This document shows, in pieces, positions 10,464-43,471 of a DNA stretch of 64,000 nt. The notes under the pieces were generated by a model. That model was not told the DNA's origin, made no database searches, and worked only from the letters and a program-made list of their open reading frames with translations. The stretch comes from Escherichia phage ECO4. Position 1 is the first letter of the stretch, and each line of letters starts with the position of its first letter. Made by a program: the position numbers and the translations under genes. The DNA is taken from the sequence record NC_054911.1; one strand, 5' to 3'.

Positions 10464-11747
10464 ATGGCTAAAATCAACGAACTTCTGCGCGAATCAACCA
10501 CAACGAATAGCAACTCAATCGGTCGCCCAAATCTCGTTGCTTTGACTCGCGCTACCACTAAATTAATATATTCTGACATTGTAGCAACGCAAAGAACTAA
10601 TCAACCTGTTGCTGCTTTTTATGGTATCAAATACCTTAACCCAGACAATGAATTTACATTTAAAACTGGTGCTACTTATGCTGGCGAAGCTGGATATGTA
10701 GACCGAGAACAAATCACAGAATTAACGGAAGAGTCTAAATTAACTCTTAATAAAGGCGATTTATTCAAATATAATAATATCGTTTATAAAGTATTAGAAG
10801 ATACACCATTTGCTGATATTGAAGAAAGTGATTTAGAATTAGCTCTTCAGATTGCAATTGTTCTTTTAAAGGTTCGTCTATTTTCTGACGCAGCGTCAAC
10901 AAGCAAATTTGAAAGCTCTGATAGTGAAATTGCGGATGCTAGATTCCAGATTAATAAATGGCAAACCGCAGTTAAATCTCGTAAACTTAAAACTGGTATC
11001 ACAGTTGAATTAGCACAAGATTTAGAAGCAAATGGATTCGATGCTCCTAATTTCTTAGAAGATTTGCTTGCAACTGAAATGGCAGATGAAATCAATAAAG
11101 ATATTCTGCAGTCTTTGATTACAGTATCAAAACGTTATAAAGTTACAGGAATTACTGATACTGGATTCATTGATTTGAGTTATGCATCTGCACCTGAAGC
11201 TGGTCGTTCATTATACCGAATGGTATGTGAAATGGTTTCGCATATCCAAAAAGAATCAACTTATACAGCAACGTTTTGTGTTGCTTCAGCTCGTGCCGCT
11301 GCGATTCTTGCTGCATCTGGTTGGTTAAAACATAAACCAGAAGATGATAAATATCTTTCACAAAATGCCTACGGGTTCTTAGCTAATGGTTTACCGCTTT
11401 ATTGCGATACTAACAGCCCATTAGATTATGTAATCGTTGGCGTAGTAGAAAATATCGGTGAAAAAGAAATTGTTGGATCAATTTTCTATGCTCCGTATAC
11501 AGAAGGTCTCGACTTAGATGACCCTGAACATGTAGGTGCATTTAAAGTTGTTGTTGATCCAGAAAGCTTACAACCGTCTATCGGTTTATTAGTTAGATAT
11601 GCTTTATCTGCAAATCCTTATACCGTAGCAAAAGATGAAAAAGAAGCAAGAGTAATTGATGGTGGAGACATGGATAAAATGGCGGGTCGTTCAGATTTGT
11701 CTGTTTTATTAGGTGTTAAGCTACCAAAAATTATTATCGATGAATAA
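10464..11747 (+). CDS. 24: capsid vertex protein gp24
   Basis: 427 aa as in T4 gp24; follows gene 23. Confidence 0.9.
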   Translation: MAKINELLRESTTTNSNSIGRPNLVALTRATTKLIYSDIVATQRTNQPVAAFYGIKYLNPDNEFTFKTGATYAGEAGYVDREQITELTEESKLTLNKGDLFKYNNIVYKVLEDTPFADIEESDLELALQIAIVLLKVRLFSDAASTSKFESSDSEIADARFQINKWQTAVKSRKLKTGITVELAQDLEANGFDAPNFLEDLLATEMADEINKDILQSLITVSKRYKVTGITDTGFIDLSYASAPEAGRSLYRMVCEMVSHIQKESTYTATFCVASARAAAILAASGWLKHKPEDDKYLSQNAYGFLANGLPLYCDTNSPLDYVIVGVVENIGEKEIVGSIFYAPYTEGLDLDDPEHVGAFKVVVDPESLQPSIGLLVRYALSANPYTVAKDEKEARVIDGGDMDKMAGRSDLSVLLGVKLPKIIIDE

Positions 11748-13360: not shown

Positions 13361-14779
13361 TTATGGATAAGTATAGATGATACCAGTTTCTAAAGCAGTT
13401 TTATGGATGATGTATCCATTACGTGATTCTTGAACATCAACTTCTGGATAATCTTTCATCATCTTCTGAAGCGTATAACGATGCAAGTAGTACTTACTAT
13501 CTGGATCTTCAGTTTTCCAATCTTTACCTTCTTCAGTCATTTTTTGGATTTCATCCATAACCCACCAACCGCACCAGATATAAGCTGAAGTACGATGTGG
13601 AAGAGGATGAACATAAGGCAATTCACCTTCTGGTTCCGGAGCAACTTTATCAGTTACCTGAACTTGACCTGTTGTTTTAACTGTTTTGCTATCATAGTCA
13701 GTTGCTGTAACGACAGCAGTAACTTCAATAGTTTGACTTCCAACAGATGAGGTATCAACAGTATATACGTTAGTTGACCCTTCTACAGGAGAAGAATCTT
13801 TCTTCCATGAGTAAGTAATTTGTGCTTCTTCTGGAGCATCCGTAACATTAGCAGTAAATGTAGCCGAAGCATCTTGCTGAACGTTAATAGAAGGAGGAGT
13901 CAATGTAACCTGTGGATTCATTGTCTTCTTATTAACTGTCAATGATACTTCATTAGAAGTAACTTCCTTTTCATTGTAATTTTCTGCTGTTACTTGGGCT
14001 ACGCATTTAATTCTTTTTACTCCACTTGTAGTTGGAGTATAGCTAAATGTAGAGCTAGTTTCTCCACCAACTTGTGAATCATCTACATACCACTGATACG
14101 TAGCAGATGCTCCATCAGGTTGAGAAGCTAAGGCAGCAGTAAATTGAACTGGGGTTCCAATTACTCCAGCTGAAGGACTAGCAGGAGTTACTGCCAATGT
14201 AGTTGTCTGTGTCTTTTTATTAACAGTCAGTGATACTTCATTAGAAGTAACGGTTTTTTCATCATAATTTGTCGCGGTTACTTGAGCTACACACTTGATT
14301 TTTTTAACTCCGCTTGCGGCAGGAGTGTAATTGAATGTAGCAGAAGTCGCTTCGTCTACAGGAGAACTGTCAACGTACCATTGATACGTAGCAGATGCAC
14401 CTGATGGCTGCGAAGCTAAAGCAGCGGTAAATTTAACAGCTGTTCCAATTACTCCTGCTGGAGGACTATTGGGAGTTACGGCTAAGGTAGTCGTCTGAGT
14501 TTTGTTTTTGACTGTGATAGTTGTAGTAGCTTCTGCTGTTTCAGCTTCAGATTCTGGAACTGTATTTGTTGCAACAACTTTAATAGTCTTTTGACCAGCA
14601 GGACCTTTTAATACATAATCAAAAGTTGCTTCAGACCCATCTTGTGGAGCATTATCTACACTCCAAGCATAAGTAATAGTTCCACCTCCAGTTTCACCAC
14701 TAGGTGCAGCAGTAAACTGCTTGGTTTCATCAATAACTCCTGACGGTGTTTTAGGAGTTATATCAACTGTAAAAGCCAT
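13361..14779 (-). CDS. hoc: Hoc outer capsid decoration protein, four Ig-like domains plus C-terminal capsid-binding domain
   Basis: 472 aa; conserved C-terminus (YIWCGWWVMDEIQ...); four roughly 95-aa Ig-like units, two of them near-identical. Confidence 0.9.
   Translation of the reverse strand: MAFTVDITPKTPSGVIDETKQFTAAPSGETGGGTITYAWSVDNAPQDGSEATFDYVLKGPAGQKTIKVVATNTVPESEAETAEATTTITVKNKTQTTTLAVTPNSPPAGVIGTAVKFTAALASQPSGASATYQWYVDSSPVDEATSATFNYTPAASGVKKIKCVAQVTATNYDEKTVTSNEVSLTVNKKTQTTTLAVTPASPSAGVIGTPVQFTAALASQPDGASATYQWYVDDSQVGGETSSTFSYTPTTSGVKRIKCVAQVTAENYNEKEVTSNEVSLTVNKKTMNPQVTLTPPSINVQQDASATFTANVTDAPEEAQITYSWKKDSSPVEGSTNVYTVDTSSVGSQTIEVTAVVTATDYDSKTVKTTGQVQVTDKVAPEPEGELPYVHPLPHRTSAYIWCGWWVMDEIQKMTEEGKDWKTEDPDSKYYLHRYTLQKMMKDYPEVDVQESRNGYIIHKTALETGIIYTYP
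13928..14509 (-). repeat. tandem direct repeat of about 291 bp x 2 inside hoc (approximate ends)
   Basis: Two adjacent, diverged copies encoding KKTQTTTLAVTP...YQWYVD...EVSLTVN. Confidence 0.8.
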
Positions 14780-16138: not shown

Positions 16139-17647
16139 ATGGATATTAAAGTACATTTTCACGACTTCAGCCATGTACGCATCGATTGTGAAGAGAGCAC
16201 GTTCCACGAATTAAGAGATTTCTTTTCGTTTGAGGCCGATGGATATAGGTTTAATCCTCGCTTCAGATATGGCAACTGGGATGGACGAATCCGTCTTTTA
16301 GATTATAATCGTCTTCTTCCATTCGGCTTAGTCGGGCAAATTAAAAAGTTCTGTGATAACTTTGGCTATAAAGCCTGGATTGACCCACAAATTAACGAAA
16401 AAGAAGAATTATCAAGAAAAGATTTTGATGAATGGCTTTCTAAATTAGAAATCTATTCAGGAAATAAAAGAATTGAACCACACTGGTATCAAAAAGATGC
16501 AGTGTTCGAAGGATTAGTTAATCGTCGTAGAATTCTTAATCTTCCAACATCTGCAGGTAAATCTTTAATTCAGGCTCTGCTTGCGCGATATTATTTGGAA
16601 AATTATGAAGGTAAAATTCTTATCATTGTTCCAACAACTGCTCTGACAACTCAGATGGCTGATGACTTTGTTGATTATCGTTTATTCAGTCACGCAATGA
16701 TAAAGAAAATTGGTGGCGGAGCATCAAAAGATGATAAATATAAAAATGATGCACCAGTCGTTGTTGGTACATGGCAAACTGTAGTAAAACAACCAAAAGA
16801 ATGGTTCTCACAGTTTGGAATGATGATGAATGATGAATGTCATCTTGCTACAGGAAAAAGTATTTCATCTATCATATCAGGTTTAAATAACTGCATGTTC
16901 AAATTTGGTCTATCTGGTTCATTACGTGACGGCAAAGCCAATATCATGCAGTATGTTGGAATGTTTGGCGAAATATTTAAGCCAGTAACGACTTCTAAGT
17001 TAATGGAAGATGGGCAAGTAACTGAGCTAAAAATTAATAGTATTTTTCTTCGTTATCCTGATGAGTTCACTACTAAATTAAAGGGAAAAACTTACCAAGA
17101 AGAAATAAAAATTATTACTGGGCTCAGTAAAAGAAATAAATGGATAGCTAAATTAGCTATTAAGCTTGCGCAAAAAGATGAAAACGCTTTTGTCATGTTT
17201 AAACATGTATCACATGGTAAAGCTATTTTCGATTTAATTAAAAATGAATACGATAAAGTTTATTACGTATCAGGGGAAGTTGATACCGAAACCCGCAATA
17301 TAATGAAAACCTTAGCTGAAAATGGCAAAGGAATAATTATAGTAGCTAGTTATGGTGTATTTTCTACTGGTATTTCAGTTAAAAATCTGCATCACGTTGT
17401 TTTAGCGCACGGTGTTAAATCAAAAATCATTGTATTACAAACAATCGGTCGTGTATTACGTAAGCATGGTTCTAAGACAATAGCAACAGTCTGGGACCTC
17501 ATAGATGACTGTGGTGTTAAGCCAAAATCTGCTAATACGAAAAAGAAATATGTTCATTTGAACTATCTTTTAAAACACGGCATTGATCGTATTCAGCGCT
17601 ACGCAGATGAAAAATTCAATTACGTAATGAAAACAGTTAATTTATAA
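16139..17647 (+). CDS. uvsW: UvsW recombination/repair helicase
   Basis: 502 aa; Walker A (SAGKS) and DECH box; position. Confidence 0.9.
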   Translation: MDIKVHFHDFSHVRIDCEESTFHELRDFFSFEADGYRFNPRFRYGNWDGRIRLLDYNRLLPFGLVGQIKKFCDNFGYKAWIDPQINEKEELSRKDFDEWLSKLEIYSGNKRIEPHWYQKDAVFEGLVNRRRILNLPTSAGKSLIQALLARYYLENYEGKILIIVPTTALTTQMADDFVDYRLFSHAMIKKIGGGASKDDKYKNDAPVVVGTWQTVVKQPKEWFSQFGMMMNDECHLATGKSISSIISGLNNCMFKFGLSGSLRDGKANIMQYVGMFGEIFKPVTTSKLMEDGQVTELKINSIFLRYPDEFTTKLKGKTYQEEIKIITGLSKRNKWIAKLAIKLAQKDENAFVMFKHVSHGKAIFDLIKNEYDKVYYVSGEVDTETRNIMKTLAENGKGIIIVASYGVFSTGISVKNLHHVVLAHGVKSKIIVLQTIGRVLRKHGSKTIATVWDLIDDCGVKPKSANTKKKYVHLNYLLKHGIDRIQRYADEKFNYVMKTVNL

Positions 17648-18382: not shown

Positions 18383-18795
18383 TATTTTCCAGCCTCAAAT
18401 GCCCGCATGTCTTGAATATGCTTAATAGCAAATCCGCGTGATTTGATAGCATCAAGAGCTCCGCTACAGAAATCTAATAAAATTCCCCAATATTGTAATG
18501 AAGTATCAACCTTTAAAACATCCTTATCAGCTGATAGAACTGTTTTCATTTCTGATTTCTCGTAACGATCCATACTAAATTCATCACCATCTCCTCGTCC
18601 CGAGTAGTAGTCTAATTTAGCTTTAAGAGCAACTTTTTTCTGTGCTTCAATTCTAAGCATTTCCTTTTTAATACTTGAATGCTTATTAAGCCATTTACTA
18701 TATAACATCACATTATTAGCTGCTTCATACTGTAATTTAGTCGAATCTATAAACACATCTTTCTTCAATTCTTCTTGAAGATCTTCTAATCTCAT
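18382..18795 (-). CDS. uvsY: UvsY recombination mediator
   Basis: 137 aa as in T4 UvsY; position. Confidence 0.85.
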   Translation of the reverse strand: MRLEDLQEELKKDVFIDSTKLQYEAANNVMLYSKWLNKHSSIKKEMLRIEAQKKVALKAKLDYYSGRGDGDEFSMDRYEKSEMKTVLSADKDVLKVDTSLQYWGILLDFCSGALDAIKSRGFAIKHIQDMRAFEAGK

Positions 18796-26176: not shown

Positions 26177-26180
26177 CAAT

Positions 26181-26210
26181 GGGGACCGAAAGGTCCCCAT
26201 GTTTTTATTT
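26181..26210. terminator. bidirectional terminator between convergent gene 54 and the alt region
   Basis: GGGGACC-GAAA-GGTCCCC hairpin followed by T-run. Confidence 0.8.
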
Positions 26211-26495
26211 ACGGAATGAAATAAAAGCAGCAACTGAAGCAACAGAGGTTTCTTCAATATAAACCTCAATTTTTATCGGAGCTTCTGACTCAAATTTACC
26301 TGTTACTACACCCTGAAAAATACTTTCAGTCTGTTCTGGCTTTGAAAAATTTTCAGAAGGAAAAATTCCGAACTTTTTATCTGTTCCAAAAATTTTGATA
26401 AATTCATCGTAAACTGCTTCATTGAAAGCGTTATCAGCGGGAATAACGCCTTCAACGACGAGTTCTTGACCTAAAAAGCGCAAAGAAGATTTCAT
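26205..26495 (-). CDS. hypothetical protein downstream of the Alt genes
   Basis: 96-aa ORF with GAGGA RBS, immediately downstream of promoter cassette 26503..26556. Confidence 0.6.
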   Translation of the reverse strand: MKSSLRFLGQELVVEGVIPADNAFNEAVYDEFIKIFGTDKKFGIFPSENFSKPEQTESIFQGVVTGKFESEAPIKIEVYIEETSVASVAAFISFRK

Positions 26496-26502
26496 TTTGT
26501 GT

Positions 26503-26556
26503 TCCTCATGTTATGTCAGTAAGACTACTATAACACAACACGAGGGACTTGTAAAC
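26503..26556 (-). promoter_or_regulatory. early-type promoter/leader cassette, copy 1 of an exact 54-bp repeat
   Basis: Minus strand GTTTACA - 17 nt - TATAGT with TGn, then leader ending in GAGGA RBS; identical to 41827..41880. Confidence 0.6.
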
Positions 26557-28613
26557 TACATTTTGAACTTTTTAGACATTCCGTTGATGTTAACCAAAGA
26601 AGCTAAGATTTGAGAAACTTCGTTTTCCTCTTCTTTTGATTCTTCTACAAGGAATTGATTAAATCCAGCCATTGGACGAACTTCACCAGTTTCCATTAGA
26701 TGGTCGCCATCATATACTGATTCTTCTAATTGTTCAGAAGGAGGAACGATTGTACCTTCGATTAGATACTTGTTATAAGCAGTTTCTTTCATAAAGTAAG
26801 TACTTACTTTATTAATCTTCAGTAAAATTCCACGTGGTAGAATAACTTCAGCTTCTGATGGAAATCCTGACAAATGACCTGGAACGATAACTTTAACTCG
26901 TTCAGCTCCTTTAATTACCATACCCACGCTAGTTTCAGCATCTTCATTAGCATATGTAGAATGACTACCCATATGCATCAAATCTTCTGCATCAACGGAA
27001 CCTTCTCCTTCACCAGAAAATACTGCTCCGGAATCATCTAAGGCCATATAATTTTTACCATACTCACCAAAGATATTTGGTTTAAGTGATGTAGATACGA
27101 AGTTCTTGAAATAGAACATTTTATTTTCAATGTTATGACGCAAAGTTTTAAAAGTAACTTCTTGTCCACGGTAAAGTGTAGTTCCTGGAGGAAGAACTGA
27201 ACCTTTAGCAAACGCAGAATCCATAGTCTCGATGTGCTTAATAGCGCGCTCCATGTATTCTTCACGTGTAGAATCAGGTTTACCTAAAAGGAATGAGTTC
27301 ATTTCAACATACGAATCTGCACAATAATCTTCAATTACATCAGATTCAGCCTGAGTCAATCCTTTTGGAGTTACTTCAGTGCTTGCATATTCATACGCCT
27401 GAGCAGCGGATTCATCAATTAATTTATAAATGCCATTCATGACAAATTGAATAATAGCTGTCTTTTCATCTGGCGTAGCTTTAGAACCTTTAACTAAATC
27501 ATTGACAATTTTCTTAATAACATCAAAGCTATTAGAAATATTAATGTCAGCAAGATCGCTTAAAATTTTATCAGTTTTATAATCAAAAAATTCTTTATTC
27601 TTTAAATATTCTTGAGAACTTTGATATGTTATATCGCTCTGCAACTTGATAGATGGATCACGTAAACGTGCATGGGCTAATGCAATATGATTTCGGAAGC
27701 TTTCTAGTTCATAATCACTAGATTTAAAACGAGAAGCACTCCTCATACCACCGATAGCTCCTTTGCCGAAGTTTGAACCAATCTGAATAACGCCAGAGTT
27801 CATTGGTCCTTCTGCTTTATATACCGGAACTTTAGATTCAAACTCTTGATATTTCTTAGCAGCAAAGCTATCACCCTGAAGTGAAGCATCAACAGTAGAA
27901 TATTGAGCTTGTGCTGCTAATCGACGACTAATTTTAGTTTTCTGAATAACAGCTTGATCCGTACGCTTATCATTTTCTAAAGCAATAGAAGCAGCAACTG
28001 CGACAGCTTTAGGAACAGCATTACCTGTTTTAACGTCTACATAAACATCACCGACTTTCGATTCAACTTTTGTGAATAACTCAGTTGAAATAGGAGGTAC
28101 ACCTGGAATGTCTTCTAAATTGGCATTTTTACGGTAAACCATAATATATGCATATTTCTTATCATAGTCCCAGATTTCCTTTAAAAGAACATATCGACCT
28201 GCTCCTTTAGTACGTACTAAACGGTCAGCAATAACTTGCATTTGACGAGCAGCGCCATTTGTTTTACTTTTTAGTACGCGGAATAGGCATGCATCAATTT
28301 TATACTGTTTCATTGTTTGAAGAGCAGTATCAAAAACCGCATTAATGACACCAATTGGATTTCCACCCAAATTTTTAAGCTTAACTAACGATAATTTCTC
28401 ATTAACACCTATCATTACGATATGCATCATTTTGTCGCCTGGCTTAACGTTTTTATTCGTATCACCGCCAGAGGTGTATGTACAAAATCGAAATCCAGGA
28501 AGAACGCTTTCTTCACCGGCTTGAATAGCAAAAATTTGAGGTATTTTATGCTTAGGATTTAAGTTAACAACCGGCGCCGAAGCGCCGTCAAATAATTCTG
28601 TAATAAGTTCCAT
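26556..28613 (-). CDS. Alt-family mono-ADP-ribosyltransferase, paralog A
   Basis: 685 aa; shared N-terminal region MELITELFD...; R-S-E type motifs (YRGQ, FVSTSL, EAEVILPRG). Confidence 0.85.
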   Translation of the reverse strand: MELITELFDGASAPVVNLNPKHKIPQIFAIQAGEESVLPGFRFCTYTSGGDTNKNVKPGDKMMHIVMIGVNEKLSLVKLKNLGGNPIGVINAVFDTALQTMKQYKIDACLFRVLKSKTNGAARQMQVIADRLVRTKGAGRYVLLKEIWDYDKKYAYIMVYRKNANLEDIPGVPPISTELFTKVESKVGDVYVDVKTGNAVPKAVAVAASIALENDKRTDQAVIQKTKISRRLAAQAQYSTVDASLQGDSFAAKKYQEFESKVPVYKAEGPMNSGVIQIGSNFGKGAIGGMRSASRFKSSDYELESFRNHIALAHARLRDPSIKLQSDITYQSSQEYLKNKEFFDYKTDKILSDLADINISNSFDVIKKIVNDLVKGSKATPDEKTAIIQFVMNGIYKLIDESAAQAYEYASTEVTPKGLTQAESDVIEDYCADSYVEMNSFLLGKPDSTREEYMERAIKHIETMDSAFAKGSVLPPGTTLYRGQEVTFKTLRHNIENKMFYFKNFVSTSLKPNIFGEYGKNYMALDDSGAVFSGEGEGSVDAEDLMHMGSHSTYANEDAETSVGMVIKGAERVKVIVPGHLSGFPSEAEVILPRGILLKINKVSTYFMKETAYNKYLIEGTIVPPSEQLEESVYDGDHLMETGEVRPMAGFNQFLVEESKEEENEVSQILASLVNINGMSKKFKM

Positions 28614-28616
28614 GAT

Positions 28617-30713
28617 TTATCCTTGAACGAACTTGTAAGGCATGTTTGTAATATCTATGCAAGACGCAATAATTCCAAGAGATGATTCTACTTTCTGTTT
28701 AACATTTGATGAAACAAATGATGCAAAGTCAACTCTATCTTCTATTTCAATATCACCTGTCATTGCAACTACTTCACCGGTTTCCATTAAATGGTCTCCG
28801 TCATAGATTACCGATTCGGTGAGCTCTTCCGTGGTCATAACTTCAGCTTGAATGAGTTTTGTATTATTAGATGTTGTTCCGTCATTATTAGAAGCATCAG
28901 TTATTTTATTAACTTTGACCATCAATCCACGCGGTAGAATAACTTCAGCTTCTGTTGCTATTCCGAGACTTCCTGGATATACAACATTAACTTTATGAGC
29001 TCCATCAATTGCCCATCCTATTTGAACTTTAACGTATTCAGGATTTTCTTTATACGCTCTTATTTCGTTTGGATTAATAGTTATTCCTTCTTCATTTTTA
29101 TCAACTGTTAATTCATTGCGAGCTTCTGGTTCTAAAAGACCAATACCAGCATGTGTGATTCCAAAACGTCCAAAAATGATAGGAGTTAAAGAAGTAGATA
29201 CAAAATTTCTGAAGTAGAACACTTTATTTTTAACTAACGCTTCATATATAGGAGCAGTCATACTTTGAGCACGATAAACTGTAATGCCTTCTGGTATACG
29301 GTCACCATTTTCAAAAGCTGAATCTAAGTTATTTATAGCAGATTCAATTTCTTTTTCACTCATTACATCATATCGTTCTGGATTGTAACGACCTAAAAGA
29401 AGATTATTGATGTCAGTATATCCTGAACCGCAATATTCTCTAATGCCACGCTTTTGTGATGGAGTATATTTAGAACCATCGCGGGCAATAGTAATATCAA
29501 TCATTGGACCAGCACCAATTCCAGAAAAACTGTAAATCATTCGTTTGAGGAATTTAGTTTTTGCTGCGTTCCAGGAATTTTTAGTTATTTCTTCCCAGAC
29601 TTCATCTGGTTGTCCTTTACGATTTTTATTATGATTAGCAAGCCATTTATCTTTATAATCTTCAAAGAATTGATTTACAGCTGCTGCGTATTTCTCTAAA
29701 CATTTTATTGAAGTAGTTGGTTCATTTTTAATTGCATTAAAAATTACTTCTTTAATTTTTTCTGAAACTTCACCGACTTGACTCATTGGAAAGAATTTAT
29801 AATCATAGTGAAGTTCATCTGCCGTTCCTTCAGCAATAATTTTTGCTGCCTTTGTTTTAGAAGCTAATGAATTAATTCCAATTTTCATTTCTTCTGCTTC
29901 GGGAATTAAAGGTGCAGTAGCTGGTTTATTAAAATTAGCTGCTGTAGATTCATACTTCTGGAATAATTCACTTTCAAATCTAGAAGATTCCAATGACTGA
30001 CTTTGTGCAATTGCTCTACGGGAAATTTTAACTTTAACGATTACGGCTTGGTCAGAACGTTTATCATTTTCTTGTGCAATAGATGCAGCAATTGCCTCAT
30101 TTTTGGTTACTTGAGCTCCAGTATCTTTATTGATATAAACATCACCGACCTTCGATTCAACTTTAGTAAAAAGCTCGGTGCTAATTTCTGGAACTCCTGG
30201 AATGTCTTCTAGTGATACATTTTTACGATGTATAAGAATATATGCATACTTTTTATCGTAATCCCAGAGTTCCTTAAGAAGGACGTATCTGCCACCTGAA
30301 CGACTGCGGATGAGTCTATCAGCAATAAGTTGAATTTGTCGAGCTTGACCGGCGGTTTTAGACTTAAGAATACGAAGCATGCAGGCATCAATTTTATATT
30401 GACGCATTGTTTGCATTGCAACAGTAAAAACTGAATTGATATAATTAATCGGGCTTGGACCAAGACCTTTTAATTTAGCAATTGAACCTTTAGCAGTTAA
30501 TGTAAAAGGAACAATGTGCATCATTTTATCGCCCATCTTTAAATCACGATTAGTATCACCTCCAGATGTATAGGTACATAAACGAAAGCCTGGTTGTTCA
30601 ATTGCATCATCAACATGAACTGAAAAAATTTGTGGTATTTTCTTCTTTGGATTTAAGTTTGTAATCGGAAGAGTAGTATCTTCGTCAAATAATTCTGTAA
30701 TGAGTTCCATCAT
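28617..30713 (-). CDS. alt: Alt-family mono-ADP-ribosyltransferase, paralog B
   Basis: 698 aa; same N-terminal and catalytic motifs (YRAQ, FVSTSL, EAEVILPRG), diverged middle; which copy is the alt ortholog is not resolved. Confidence 0.85.
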   Translation of the reverse strand: MMELITELFDEDTTLPITNLNPKKKIPQIFSVHVDDAIEQPGFRLCTYTSGGDTNRDLKMGDKMMHIVPFTLTAKGSIAKLKGLGPSPINYINSVFTVAMQTMRQYKIDACMLRILKSKTAGQARQIQLIADRLIRSRSGGRYVLLKELWDYDKKYAYILIHRKNVSLEDIPGVPEISTELFTKVESKVGDVYINKDTGAQVTKNEAIAASIAQENDKRSDQAVIVKVKISRRAIAQSQSLESSRFESELFQKYESTAANFNKPATAPLIPEAEEMKIGINSLASKTKAAKIIAEGTADELHYDYKFFPMSQVGEVSEKIKEVIFNAIKNEPTTSIKCLEKYAAAVNQFFEDYKDKWLANHNKNRKGQPDEVWEEITKNSWNAAKTKFLKRMIYSFSGIGAGPMIDITIARDGSKYTPSQKRGIREYCGSGYTDINNLLLGRYNPERYDVMSEKEIESAINNLDSAFENGDRIPEGITVYRAQSMTAPIYEALVKNKVFYFRNFVSTSLTPIIFGRFGITHAGIGLLEPEARNELTVDKNEEGITINPNEIRAYKENPEYVKVQIGWAIDGAHKVNVVYPGSLGIATEAEVILPRGLMVKVNKITDASNNDGTTSNNTKLIQAEVMTTEELTESVIYDGDHLMETGEVVAMTGDIEIEDRVDFASFVSSNVKQKVESSLGIIASCIDITNMPYKFVQG

Positions 30714-30733: not shown

Positions 30734-30741
30734 TATTTATA
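30734..30741 (-). promoter_or_regulatory. late promoter TATAAATA upstream of Alt paralog B
   Basis: Exact TATAAATA on minus strand about 20 nt upstream of the ATG at 30713. Confidence 0.55.
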
Positions 30742-30951: not shown

Positions 30952-32411
30952 AAACCAGTTACCTCATGAAAATCGCCAAATACATCTTCGAACGTATTAG
31001 CTTTAGTTTTATCTTCACGTAAACGAATCGCAATTGGAAGAAATAATTTAACGTAATCGGTGCGGCCATCAGATTTTAACCAACCGTTGCATTCACACTC
31101 TAGAATTTTTCCAATATAATAATTTTGGTTTTCCATAATGCGAGTACGGTCAAGTTCATGCGATTTTACACCAGCTTTATCTTTTAAGCCTGAACCAGCA
31201 TTTACTTTAATTTTTCCACACTCTGACTCAAGAATAAATCCACCCGCTTTAGTAGGGTCTTTACGGTGAGGATAAATTCCTACAATTTTTAAATCAACAT
31301 CAATTACTTCTTTAAATTTATAAAGATTTTTTGAACGAGCATTTTCCCATAATCCATCGATATTTTTGAGAATAATACCTTCAAGACCTTGGTCAATATA
31401 CTTTTTATAAATTACCTTAGCTTCATCTAGGTTATTTACTACCTGGTTTTCAATTAAAATTACTTTATCATAACCTGATGTCATTTGTTCTAGTTTAGAA
31501 AAACGTACATCATATTTCAAACGAAATGCAGGAAGACCGTATATTTCTACCAACGGGACATAATCCCAGACCTGAAACTTCATGCATTGTGCTTCTTTTT
31601 CAGAAATGGTTCCCTTTAAAGATTTATTAGCGATTCCATTAGAAGTAGTACGTGATTCAGCTACTTCGGCGAATTCTTTAGCTTTACTAATTTCAGGATA
31701 AGCATCAAAAAGAAAATCTAGGCCTTCTGGTTCCTTTTCAACTTGCTCATGGTATACCAATTCGCCATCAATTAACACACCTTCTGGATGAATCTGGCGA
31801 GCTTCTGCAGTCATTTTGATTAACTCTTCCTTGAGAAGATCTAATCCTAGATATTCATTACCAGCTCGTGATAAAAGACGAACATCATCTAATTCATCAC
31901 CTCTGACTTCAGCAAAGCACCGAGCTCCATCAGCTTTTAATTGGGCAAAGGCTGGAAACTTGATATTCTTACTAATGCCTTTTTCATCATAAGAACTTGC
32001 CAGCATTTGAGGTTGTTCAGGAATTAAACCTGGCCAAACTTTGTTTGCAATAGATACTGAAGCACCGCATTCAAGGTCTCGCATCATCACCCGACGCAAA
32101 ACTTCAACATCATCTTTTTTACCGTCAGCAATATATCCAGTTAATTCCTCAATTGCCGCATTTCCGGTCAATTTCCGAGTAGCTAACGTGAATTCAATGA
32201 AGTCAAGCATATCGGTAAGAGTCAACATTCCAAAACTCTGGGTAGCAATACCAGGTTTAGGCCATTTCTTGATATAATACTGTAACCCACGAGAATAAGT
32301 CAGACGATATACTCGTTTAAGCAATTCATTATCTTTATTCTTTTCAAGAATTGCTTGCTTCTGCTTAGTTGAACCAATAGATGCTATTTCGTTCAGAATT
32401 TTAAGAATCAT
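30948..32411 (-). CDS. 30: ATP-dependent DNA ligase gp30
   Basis: 487 aa; N-terminus MILKILNEIASIGSTKQKQ... and KADGARC adenylation motif recognised as T4 DNA ligase. Confidence 0.95.
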   Translation of the reverse strand: MILKILNEIASIGSTKQKQAILEKNKDNELLKRVYRLTYSRGLQYYIKKWPKPGIATQSFGMLTLTDMLDFIEFTLATRKLTGNAAIEELTGYIADGKKDDVEVLRRVMMRDLECGASVSIANKVWPGLIPEQPQMLASSYDEKGISKNIKFPAFAQLKADGARCFAEVRGDELDDVRLLSRAGNEYLGLDLLKEELIKMTAEARQIHPEGVLIDGELVYHEQVEKEPEGLDFLFDAYPEISKAKEFAEVAESRTTSNGIANKSLKGTISEKEAQCMKFQVWDYVPLVEIYGLPAFRLKYDVRFSKLEQMTSGYDKVILIENQVVNNLDEAKVIYKKYIDQGLEGIILKNIDGLWENARSKNLYKFKEVIDVDLKIVGIYPHRKDPTKAGGFILESECGKIKVNAGSGLKDKAGVKSHELDRTRIMENQNYYIGKILECECNGWLKSDGRTDYVKLFLPIAIRLREDKTKANTFEDVFGDFHEVTGL

Positions 32412-35469: not shown

Positions 35470-35512
35470 TTTGTGTAAGATAATACTATCACAAAGGAAC
35501 CATACTGTAAAC
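35470..35512 (-). promoter_or_regulatory. early-type promoter with overlapping stem-loop
   Basis: Minus strand GTTTACA - 17 nt - TAGTAT with TGn; inverted repeat TTTGTG/CACAAA. Confidence 0.5.
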
Positions 35513-40975: not shown

Positions 40976-41325
40976 TTAGAAAGGTCCTGGATGTCTTCTG
41001 CGAACTTGTTGAAGGAGTTGTTGATTTGTTTTTCAACCAATCCTGGCTTACGAGCCACCACATCCGCCTTCTTTGCATCTTTGCGCAGTTTTTCATTTTC
41101 ACGCTCAATAGCAGCAATCGCCTCACGATTTTTATTATTCATCGCATCAATATAATTATACTGAATTCGCAAATTATTTAATGCTAAGGCGTTTTCATTG
41201 GCCGTTTTTGTAATTTCTACAACAGACGTTTCTAATCTTTCTACCTTATTTTTTAAAATAATAGATGTTCCGCCAAATGCTATTACAAGTAATAGCAATC
41301 CAGCTGTAAAATTACTTACATGCAT
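40972..41325 (-). CDS. pseT.3: N-terminal TM plus coiled-coil protein, putative i-spanin
   Basis: 117 aa; one N-terminal hydrophobic helix then a charged helical domain; paired with the lipoprotein. Confidence 0.6.
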   Translation of the reverse strand: MHVSNFTAGLLLLVIAFGGTSIILKNKVERLETSVVEITKTANENALALNNLRIQYNYIDAMNNKNREAIAAIERENEKLRKDAKKADVVARKPGLVEKQINNSFNKFAEDIQDLSK

Positions 41326-41819
41326 AAAGTTTTAATAACCTCTATAATATCGTCTTGAGAAAGACCGTTAATTAAAATATGATGTTCAGCCGGAGATTTA
41401 GAAATTTTAAAGCACGCCGCAACATCTTCTGCCATATCCGATGCGCTACGATTTGGATTACTAATTCCAAGACGATGCTTTCCTGTCAAAGGATTAACGA
41501 TGATATAGCATTTGCAGCTATTGATATGAACATTAGGTTGAGTCTGATTAATAAACACTTCACAATCATACTTAGCGAGTTGATTTTCTAAAAAGACTTT
41601 CATCTCCTCAACCGCATCAGGAAGCATATCACGGGCTTGCTCAAGACGACGATTTCGATATTCTTTAATGGTCGTTTTCCGCTTGACTTGCTTAGCTAAA
41701 TCTTTCTTAAGATCGGTGATATATCCAACTCGACGATTTCCTTTGAATACAGAAATCCCATCTGTAGTATCACCGTATGCTTCAACGACCATTTCAGTAG
41801 TAATAAGCTGCAAATCCAT
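41316..41819 (-). CDS. alc: Alc, inhibitor of host transcription
   Basis: 167 aa from second ATG; position between pseT region and rnlA. Confidence 0.7.
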   Translation of the reverse strand: MDLQLITTEMVVEAYGDTTDGISVFKGNRRVGYITDLKKDLAKQVKRKTTIKEYRNRRLEQARDMLPDAVEEMKVFLENQLAKYDCEVFINQTQPNVHINSCKCYIIVNPLTGKHRLGISNPNRSASDMAEDVAACFKISKSPAEHHILINGLSQDDIIEVIKTLCM

Positions 41820-41826
41820 CATAAAG

Positions 41827-41880
41827 TCCTCATGTTATGTCAGTAAGACTACTATAACACAACACGAGGGACTTGTAAAC
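41827..41880 (-). promoter_or_regulatory. early-type promoter/leader cassette, copy 2 of the exact 54-bp repeat
   Basis: Identical to 26503..26556; lies between rnlA stop and alc start. Confidence 0.6.
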
Positions 41881-41883
41881 AGC

Positions 41884-43471
<1,588 letters not shown>

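Follow-up and report, generated by a model that had tools for sequence, protein, structure and literature searches.

The 54-nt sequence that occurs twice in the analysed DNA of Escherichia phage ECO4 consists of the -35 element of an early promoter and one complete predicted hairpin, in which the promoter spacer would pair with the Shine-Dalgarno (SD) region of the gene downstream. New in this analysis is the reading of the repeat unit as a promoter-embedded anti-SD hairpin, for which comparison of T4-like phages points to strong covariation across genera at one of the two loci, alc. The most likely function of the cassette is translational insulation of the downstream gene from read-through transcripts, the copy at the other locus, alt.-3, being most likely a secondary acquisition. 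The cassette itself is old and a largely ordinary regulatory element, present twice in essentially every phage of the T4 genus.

The duplicated cassette and its surroundings

A pattern search of the window (the whole 64,000-nt stretch of DNA analysed, record NC_054911.1) with the 54-mer TCCTCATGTTATGTCAGTAAGACTACTATAACACAACACGAGGGACTTGTAAAC returned two exact matches with 0 mismatches, at 26503-26556 and 41827-41880 in plus-strand coordinates, as had been claimed in the first-pass annotation. No third copy was found in the window even when 3 mismatches were allowed, and the number of matches expected by chance was 0 (100 dinucleotide shuffles). An independent repeat search of the window recovered the same 54-nt pair (family D11). 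Read on the minus strand, both copies give GTTTACAAGTCCCTCGTGTTGTGTTATAGTAGTCTTACTGACATAACATGAGGA, in which the pattern GTTTACA-N17(TGn)-TATAGT is followed by GAGGA; the earlier description of a sigma70-type early promoter (GTTTACA, 17-nt spacer, TGn, TATAGT) with a GAGGA-containing leader was borne out in both copies. The cassettes and the genes around them are:

26503..26556, minus strand: cassette copy 1, 54 nt, exact match, between the stop of the Alt-like ORF and the start of alt.-3
41827..41880, minus strand: cassette copy 2, 54 nt, exact match, between the stop of rnlA and the start of alc
26205..26495, minus strand: alt.-3 (96 aa), downstream of copy 1 and served by it (ORF list and annotation of relatives)
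41316..41822, minus strand: alc (inhibitor of host transcription), downstream of copy 2 and served by it (ORF list, T4 annotation and tblastn)
26556..28613, minus strand: Alt-like ADP-ribosyltransferase paralogue, 685 aa, putative source of read-through into copy 1
41884..43044, minus strand: rnlA (RNA ligase 1), putative source of read-through into copy 2 (ORF as listed)
26179..26200: terminator-like GC hairpin between alt.-3 and gene 54, likely the end of the alt.-3 transcript

The first base of copy 1 is the last base of the TAG stop codon of the 685-aa Alt-like ORF, and its 3' end lies 7 nt ahead of the ATG of the 96-aa alt.-3 ORF. Copy 2 begins 3 nt past the rnlA TAA and stops 4 nt short of the first alc ATG, the T4 annotation using the second ATG (41819) as the alc start. 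Both placements agree with the earlier statement that the cassette lies between the stop of a large gene and the start of the next gene. Identity is lost sharply at both borders of the copies, and the 20 nt upstream have an A+T content of 80% at copy 1 and 55% at copy 2, where the A/T-rich run is located farther upstream, inside rnlA. BLASTP found no homology between the Alt.-3 and Alc proteins, and the duplication is therefore regulatory only. A weak DNA similarity is present between alc and alt.-3 over the first ~16 codons.

Early promoters were listed by GTTTAC(A/T), a 16-18 nt spacer and a TG-extended -10, and the early (minus) strand of the window contained eight such sites. Among the other early-promoter pairs, exact matches reached at most 15 nt in the window and in ATK47, 17 nt in CC31 and 25 nt in JS98, compared with 54 nt for the cassette. 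RNAfold placed a hairpin across the -10 in six of the eight window promoters and an SD-occluding hairpin in three of them, namely the two cassette copies and the promoter with GTTTAC starting at 35512.

In the numbering used here, position 1 is the G of GTTTACA and position 54 the last A of GAGGA, so that the -35 TTTACA covers positions 2-7, the TGn 22-24, the -10 TATAGT 25-30 and the SD GAGGA 50-54. The corresponding elements in the window are:

26550..26555, minus strand: -35 TTTACA of copy 1, with a G before it giving GTTTACA (consensus scan)
26527..26535, minus strand: extended -10 TGt TATAGT of copy 1 (consensus scan)
26520, minus strand: predicted transcription start of copy 1, an A 7 nt past TATAGT at cassette position 37 (from sigma-70 geometry)
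26503..26507, minus strand: SD GAGGA of copy 1 (alt.-3), with the ATG 7 nt downstream
41874..41879, minus strand: -35 TTTACA of copy 2 (consensus scan)
41851..41859, minus strand: extended -10 TGt TATAGT of copy 2 (consensus scan)
41844, minus strand: predicted transcription start of copy 2, cassette position 37 (from sigma-70 geometry)
41827..41831, minus strand: SD GAGGA of copy 2 (alc), with ATGs 4 and 7 nt downstream

Judged by this geometry, transcription from the cassette promoter would begin near position 37, downstream of the complete 5' arm of the hairpin; the T4 equivalents of the predicted starts (NC_000866) are ~123057 (copy 1) and ~136300 (copy 2), both on the minus strand. The T4 GenBank record AF158101 has no promoter features, and measured T4 start sites for the two promoters are not given in the reviews and omics papers searched. 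In T4, alc and alt.-3 are placed among the early genes by both RNA and protein, and the rnlA protein among the late ones. The late-promoter motif TATAAATA is present at 30734-30741 (minus strand), just upstream of the first alt paralogue, and the terminator scan detected no terminator-like site from there to alt.-3, so late alt transcripts should enter the alt.-3 cassette. The same late motif is absent from the cassette, the promoter of which is of the early sigma-70 type. Both cassettes appear to sit between a gene needed later or continuously and a gene needed only early, a setting in which an insulator would be useful.

Predicted hairpin and accessibility of the Shine-Dalgarno sequence

The hairpins predicted by RNAfold are:

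26504..26545, minus strand: hairpin of copy 1, cassette positions 12-53
41824..41874, minus strand: hairpin of copy 2, the same helix lengthened

A 14-bp stem is formed by positions 12-25 (CCUCGUGUUGUGUU) pairing with positions 40-53 (GACAUAACAUGAGG), and above it RNAfold places an AU bulge (26-27), a 4-bp stem of AGUA (28-31) with UACU (36-39) and a GUCU loop. The copy 2 helix is lengthened by AAGUCC/GGACUU via three flanking bases outside the repeat, the predicted helix covering 18 bp within the cassette and 18-22 bp over both loci. Its 5' arm consists of the promoter spacer and the -10, its 3' arm of the leader and the SD. This hairpin over positions 12-53 was absent from the earlier reading and is the most informative feature of the 54-mer.

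The 101-nt regions of copies 1 and 2 folded with -23.3 kcal/mol (z = -3.1) and -35.1 kcal/mol (z = -5.2), respectively, and the minimum free energy of the hairpin was -23 kcal/mol in the alt.-3 copy and -24.4 kcal/mol in the alc copy, with the SD within the helix. A search of Rfam gave only a chance match (E = 0.78), far under the gathering score. In partition-function folding of the alc transcripts, opening of the SD to AUG segment cost 2.3 kcal/mol in the RNA from its own promoter and 9.8 kcal/mol in the read-through RNA, the probability of an unpaired SD being 0.70 and 0.01, respectively. For alt.-3 the opening energies were 3.1 kcal/mol in the own-promoter transcript and 12.2 kcal/mol in the read-through transcript, with probabilities of 0.04 and 0.00; the low probability in the own-promoter transcript is due to a weak 5-bp helix of the SD with codons 3-4.

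The T4-type cassette folds better in the sense (-24.4 kcal/mol) than in the antisense direction (-15.4 kcal/mol), and its stem includes three G.U pairs. Across lineages the sense strand was the more stable one in only 4 of 12, and the stems are almost wholly Watson-Crick. Wobble-pair asymmetry had been considered as proof of RNA-level structure; it is seen in the T4-type cassette but does not extend across lineages, and was dropped, as an RNA helix and a DNA inverted repeat then cannot be told apart by sequence alone. An RNA helix is favoured, rather than proven, by the involvement of the SD.

Variation at the two loci among T4-like phages

The window region is 99.3-99.5% identical to the Escherichia phages vB-Eco-KMB40, JY01 and wV7, and thus belongs to Tequatrovirus, the genus of T4. 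A BLAST search with the 54-mer found it in 498 phage records at 995 places, with two copies in nearly every record, T4, T6 and the RB phages included, and in the relatives, too, one copy lies upstream of alt.-3 and the other upstream of alc. Searching related phages for the 54-mer had been proposed in the first-pass annotation, and an assembly artefact had been named there as a possible source of the identity; since the pair is present in ~498 independent records, it is neither an artefact of assembly nor a peculiarity of one genome. In T4 (AF158101) the alc copy equals the window copy and the alt.-3 copy differs by one base (G40A).

The variant spectrum rests on about 15 Tequatrovirus genomes and contigs out of the ~498 records, and scans of IMG/VR and metagenomes for the cassette contributed 7 and 10 loci, respectively. 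The alc copies included the variants T27C, T33A, G16A, C15T, A46G, G40T and, in T6, G16T, and the alt.-3 copies G40A (T4), the haplotype C11T+C15T+G16A, C42T, G32A, G29A and C12A. Within these ~15 genomes the variants were mostly confined to one locus and not common to both copies, the exception being vB_ECOLIGBLB0003 (L070), where G16A and T27C are common to both. The distance between the two copies of one genome averaged ~1.7 of 54 positions, about as the ortholog diversity predicts. Cassette diversity was 0.023 at alc and 0.036 at alt.-3, equal to that of the flanking coding DNA (0.019-0.043), and the exact identity seen in the window is accordingly the unmutated ancestral state. Two candidate explanations of the identity were rejected on these grounds: exceptional conservation of the cassette, as it is just as diverse as the coding DNA flanking it, and ongoing gene conversion as the main cause, as the variants are mostly locus-specific. 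Occasional later conversion is possible, given the shared variants of vB_ECOLIGBLB0003.

Eight of the nine transitions at stem positions keep the pairing, and in one alt.-3 copy C15T occurs together with G50A, on the two sides of one pair. The pair-breaking changes were three transversions and G29A (C12A and G29A in alt.-3 copies, G16T in the alc copy of T6), and because such changes are present in some copies, constraint within the genus is modest. The pattern gives modest evidence that the helix may still be under selection at both loci within Tequatrovirus.

For the comparison at alc, the rnlA-alc intergenic regions of 18 lineages of T4-like phages were used. An early promoter was present between the upstream stop and the alc start in all 18, the upstream gene being an unnamed ORF in ZZ1 and rnlA in the others. 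Over the 18 alc and six alt.-3 lineages the promoter follows the upstream stop by 0-22 nt, mostly by 0-3 nt, the exceptions being ZZ1 (6 nt) and 44RR (~22 nt). In 14 of the 18 alc lineages the spacer opens with 9-14 bases that can pair with the SD region, and these sequences differ among the lineages:

Karamvirus and Moonvirus alc: spacer arm TCTCCATTTGGTT, SD arm AACCAAATGGAGA
Jiaodavirus KP1 alc: spacer arm TCCTCATCAG, SD arm CTGATGAGGA
Bragavirus phiP4-3 alc: spacer arm ACCTCTCATTTT, SD arm AAAATGAGAGGT
Serratia phage WSPA alc: spacer arm TCCTCGTTTTGAT, SD arm ATCAAAACGAGGA
Lineage L018 alc: spacer arm TCCTCATTTTGTTG, SD arm CAACAAAATGAGGA
Dhakavirus JS98 alc: spacer arm TCTCCTCAT, SD arm ATGAGGAGA

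Duplexes between spacer and leader averaged -17.0 kcal/mol for cognate and -9.3 kcal/mol for non-cognate partners, none of 100,000 permutations was as good, and the cognate partner was the best one in 10 of the 12 rows. In a register-fitted alignment 85% of the cells pair, compared with 66.8 ± 2.5% in shuffles (0 of 500 as high) and 40-53% in slid controls, and 11 of the 13 pairs include changes on both sides; this alignment was built by complementarity, leans towards structure and is secondary to the duplex test. MAFFT and RNAalifold gave no consensus structure for the natural alc leaders, because the arms lie in different registers. The strong covariation supports selection for pairing between spacer and SD at alc.

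SD occlusion was absent from the alc loci of Mosigvirus ATK47, Yersinia phage MHG19, Acinetobacter phage ZZ1 and Aeromonas phage 44RR, and the feature is thus dispensable. The MHG19 hairpin covers the -10 and not the SD, and the ZZ1 promoter is overlapped by a terminator-like hairpin with a U tract. In nearly all alc lineages the bases following the helix are A-rich, which indicates that what has been conserved is the occlusion of the ribosome-binding site (RBS) and not intrinsic termination.

Outside Tequatrovirus an early promoter adjoins the alt stop also at alt.-3 (CC31-like, JS98-like, L037, L040, L046 and ATK47), and the spacers of these six lineages showed no anti-SD. They include a small internal inverted repeat, CACA-AGGA-TGTG, and form spacer-leader duplexes of only -6 to -8 kcal/mol. 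At alt.-3, pairing with the SD was seen only in Tequatrovirus. As the anti-SD is present at alc across lineages and at alt.-3 only in this genus, the SD-occluding cassette appears ancestral at alc and derived at alt.-3, which by parsimony over few outgroup lineages points to the alc cassette having been copied to alt.-3 in the Tequatrovirus stem lineage. Counter to this direction, the leader part ACATGAGGA resembles outgroup alt.-3 leaders, and the T4-type cassette may therefore itself be a mosaic.

Exchange between the two loci was seen also elsewhere. In the Dhakavirus-like IMGVR_2706795356 the leaders of alc and alt.-3 share a stretch of 32 identical nt (ACCTTACACAAACATGAGGAGAACATTATGAA), whereas the spacers differ (L023 at alc, L037 at alt.-3), and the Mosigvirus alc promoter has an alt.-3-type spacer, a chimeric pattern. 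Partial exchanges between the loci have thus taken place independently in the Dhakavirus-like phage and probably in Mosigvirus, and repeated exchange of this kind, as read from the sequences, is the behaviour proposed for promoter-early stem-loops (PeSLs). The suggestion of a mobile cassette or recent gene conversion made in the first-pass annotation stands in part: the two loci have exchanged promoter sequence in different genera, but the pair in the window is not recent, being fixed in essentially all Tequatrovirus.

Proposed mechanism, alternatives and related systems

RNA from the cassette's own promoter would start inside the structure, at about position 37, and lack the 5' arm, leaving the RBS open and the gene translated. 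Read-through RNA from alt or rnlA would carry both arms and have the RBS locked in a helix of 18-22 bp. The cassette would in this way insulate the early gene downstream, Alc (and in Tequatrovirus Alt.-3) being made only when the early promoter fires, and middle or late read-through messages would yield neither protein. The hairpin cassette would have belonged originally to the alc locus. Not long before the known Tequatrovirus genomes diverged, it would have replaced the resident alt.-3 promoter through homologous recombination or gene conversion between two similar promoters, after which both cassettes would have evolved mostly independently. Taken together, translational insulation by the cassette and a history of copying from alc to alt.-3 form the explanation we hold to be moderately probable.

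The hairpin could instead act as a terminator or attenuator of the upstream gene, with the promoter restarting transcription and the occlusion of the RBS being incidental. A PeSL stem-loop of RB49 cut lacZ expression like a strong terminator (Arbiol et al., PMC2839356), the alc copy is followed by a short U-rich run, CUUUAUGAU, and the hairpin overlapping the ZZ1 alc promoter is truly terminator-like, with its U tract. However, the alt.-3 copy is followed by AACACAAAAUG, and A-rich sequence without a U tract comes after the alc hairpins in Karamvirus, Moonvirus, Dhakavirus, Jiaodavirus, Bragavirus and others. Neither copy was flagged by the terminator scan, and the conserved 3' arm always ends on the SD, which a terminator would not need; termination as the main role is therefore unlikely, though attenuation keeps some weight for the alc copy. 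Translational coupling, in which ribosomes finishing alt or rnlA would melt the helix and the downstream gene would be translated in proportion to the upstream one, could account for the upstream stop lying 0-3 nt from the -35 in most lineages at both loci. A terminating ribosome unwinds only ~5-9 nt beyond the stop, and the anti-SD bases start 11-14 nt past the stop codon, so it would not reach the core of the helix. As the T4 rnlA protein is moreover classed as late and Alc as early, coupling is very improbable.

It is almost equally improbable, if slightly less so than coupling, that the inverted repeat acts as DNA within the promoter, whether as a hot spot of recombination, by forming a cruciform or as a palindrome bound by protein, its identity being kept as a substrate for recombination of the PeSL type. 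The nearly complete Watson-Crick pairing of the stems across lineages, where the antisense fold matches the sense fold in stability, would suit such a role, as would the repeated exchange of sequence between the alc and alt.-3 loci and the fact that PeSLs are documented sites of recombination generating mini-circles (PMC2839356, PMC4122927). A DNA element gives no reason for an arm placed exactly on the SD in 14 lineages, and the three G.U pairs of the T4-type stem would be mismatches in DNA. Recombination between these direct repeats would also delete ~15 kb, a segment presumably including essential T4 genes such as 30 and 31. Early promoters of the T4 type do share GTTTACA, tGTGtTAtaaT, a CTTAC-like start region and GAGGA, but other promoter pairs have no more than 15-25 exact bases in common, zero chance matches are expected, and the spacer and leader are identical also outside the consensus. 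That the identity reflects a mere early-promoter consensus, or faulty assembly in ~498 independently assembled genomes, is refuted by these results.

Insulation of the downstream gene, the preferred reading, has its closest counterparts among described T4 elements. PeSLs comprise an early promoter, a stem-loop between the -35 and -10 or over the -10, and an SD and ATG at the 3' end; the stem-loop has been read as a terminator or attenuator, and recombination between PeSLs has been shown (Arbiol et al. 2010, PMC2839356). They were later extended to the PST/T4 pair with the consensus TTTACW-N17-TAYWAT (Comeau et al. 2014, PMC4122927), which the cassette matches with TTTACA-17-TATAGT and a TGn. 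The cassette shares further the hairpin, predicted at 18-22 bp with its 5' arm in the spacer and -10, a GAGGA at the 3' end, 4-7 nt ahead of the ATG, a stop codon 0-3 nt before GTTTACA, and recombination between loci, here suggested by the 54-nt and 32-nt identities and the Mosigvirus chimera. The affinity to PeSLs proposed in the first-pass annotation is thereby upheld, the architecture of the cassette fitting the original description (PMC2839356) and the cassette fitting into the PeSL class. The differences are in role and setting: the published role is termination or attenuation, without discussion of translation (PMC2839356), whereas in the cassette the 3' arm is the SD, a U tract is mostly lacking and the pairing covaries at alc. 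PeSLs have also been described mainly near the variable ORFans of hyperplastic regions, and alc, by contrast, is conserved.

The long transcripts of the T4 genes e, soc, 49 and I-TevI fold the SD and/or the AUG into a helix and are silent (Uzan and Miller 2010, PMC3014915), and a promoter in the DNA of the 5' arm gives a translatable RNA without that arm (PMC3014915). In the cassette, likewise, the SD is paired in the predicted read-through RNA and the promoter lies inside the DNA of the 5' arm, with the start site placed 3' of that arm by sigma-70 geometry. In those genes the internal promoter is late (TATAAATA) and the silent RNAs are early or middle, whereas the promoter of the cassette is an early sigma-70 promoter and the RNAs silenced would be upstream read-through, late alt transcripts included. 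The genes alc and alt.-3 are not on the list of the review (PMC3014915). The cassette can thus be regarded as a putative variant of this type, working alike with an early promoter instead. A third comparison is offered by the internal protein (IP) genes of T-even phages, which have conserved 5' regions in common that are thought to allow shuffling (Repoila et al. 1994, as cited in PMC4122927). As with the IP genes, unrelated genes of one phage share a 5' regulatory segment here. The IP case reportedly includes a shared N-terminal coding leader, whereas Alc and Alt.-3 are unrelated proteins whose genes resemble each other only weakly, in the first ~16 codons. A description of the alc/alt.-3 pair or of the alc hairpin was not found in the literature searched, although the older literature may have one, and a full-text search with the cassette sequence gave nothing relevant.

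The 54-bp direct repeat is present in T4 itself and matters for phage engineering and for primers and guides placed near alc or alt.-3; the latter gene has received recent attention as the place where mutations allowing escape from the CmdTAC defence system arise. The repeat is also a natural example of a whole module of promoter, hairpin and RBS copied between loci. The chances seem even that the anti-SD hairpin in the early promoter is a conserved translational insulator of Alc in most enterobacterial T4-like genera, and a portable module copied whole onto alt.-3 in the Tequatrovirus ancestor, with parts swapped between both loci elsewhere. If so, alc, and in the T4 genus alt.-3, would join the T4 genes whose translation depends on which promoter made the message, as the first such case with an early gating promoter. 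The stem-loops of PeSLs would gain a translational role beside attenuation, and an explanation would be at hand for the conservation of the promoter spacer, which can normally vary freely, and for its covariation with the RBS.

Shared sequence and probable exchange between promoter loci

The cassette of identical early promoter, hairpin and SD was compared between its alt.-3 and alc copies in relatives of ECO4. In vB_ECOLIGBLB0003 (L070, PV654517.1) the two copies occupy the following positions.

16501-16554, cassette copy of vB_ECOLIGBLB0003
31627-31680, cassette copy of vB_ECOLIGBLB0003

Numbered from the G of GTTTACA, the alt.-3 copy of this phage carries C15T together with G50A, which lie on both sides of one stem pair and change it from C-G to U-A, the SD becoming AAGGA. 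Two further substitutions, G16A and T27C, are common to the alt.-3 and alc copies, and their presence in both of the phage's own copies hints at a later partial conversion.

In the Dhakavirus-like IMGVR_UViG_2706795356_000001 the leaders of alc (L023) and alt.-3 (L037) share an identical stretch of 32 nt that begins just 3' of the -10 and reaches into the start codon; the spacers of the two promoters are different. Judged from these sequences, the two loci of this genome have undergone an independent exchange. Two other early promoters, those of JS98 (L011) at 10582 and 11663, have 25 exact bases in common, across the -10 and the start region.

Similarity within the coding starts of alt.-3 and alc

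In the window, the 60 nt directly 3' of each 54-mer (26443-26502 and 41767-41826, minus strand), spanning approximately the first 16 codons of alt.-3 and alc, were more similar to each other than shuffled sequence (local score 14, p-value approximately 0.0002). The match includes 26 identical bases out of 36, GTCGTTGAAG among them, and the Alt.-3 and Alc proteins are otherwise unrelated. In CC31, JS98 and ATK47, comparison phages outside Tequatrovirus, the same 60-nt comparison was not significant. The downstream likeness may be due to chance, added to a common E-(L/M)-V-V motif; alternatively, the conversion tract may in the past have extended into the coding region.

The start of alc contains two in-frame ATGs 3 nt apart (41817-41822, minus strand), of which the second is the annotated start in T4. 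The equivalent place in other genera reads ATGAATATG.

Inverted repeats at other early promoters

An inverted repeat between the spacer and the early transcribed region, reaching across the -10, is present also at further early promoters of the window, listed by the G of GTTTAC.

52057, minus strand, early promoter
38577, minus strand, early promoter
35120, minus strand, early promoter
35512, minus strand, early promoter

The arms of such repeats include GGGTA/TACCC, GGTAGAG/CTCTACC and GGTACAGG/CCTGTACC, and at 35512 a spacer anti-SD again pairs with the SD (TTCCTTTG/CAAAGGAG). A like pattern was found at early promoters of CC31, JS98 and ATK47. The alt.-3 upstream regions of non-Tequatrovirus relatives (L037-L050) have a small inverted repeat within the spacer, CACA-AGGA-TGTG and its variants, whose 3' half is formed by the TGTG that is conserved in the extended -10. 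Repeats of this type occur also in some other promoters (at 18757, 19941 and 34402 of L051, likewise outside Tequatrovirus).

alt.-3 and the alt paralogues

26556-30713, minus strand, two full-length paralogues of the ADP-ribosyltransferase gene alt, in tandem (685 aa and 698 aa)
26205-26495, alt.-3

The DNA of the two paralogues includes several blocks that are 70-78% identical, spaced 2094-2097 nt apart; T4, for comparison, has a single alt and the degenerate fragments alt.-1 and alt.-2. Elsewhere in the window, the repeat search found a tandem duplication of a 288-nt unit with 76% identity (13922-14497, family D1). Wild-type Alt.-3 is without known function, and the mutations by which T4 escapes the CmdTAC defence system are C-terminal extensions of this protein (PMC11618068).
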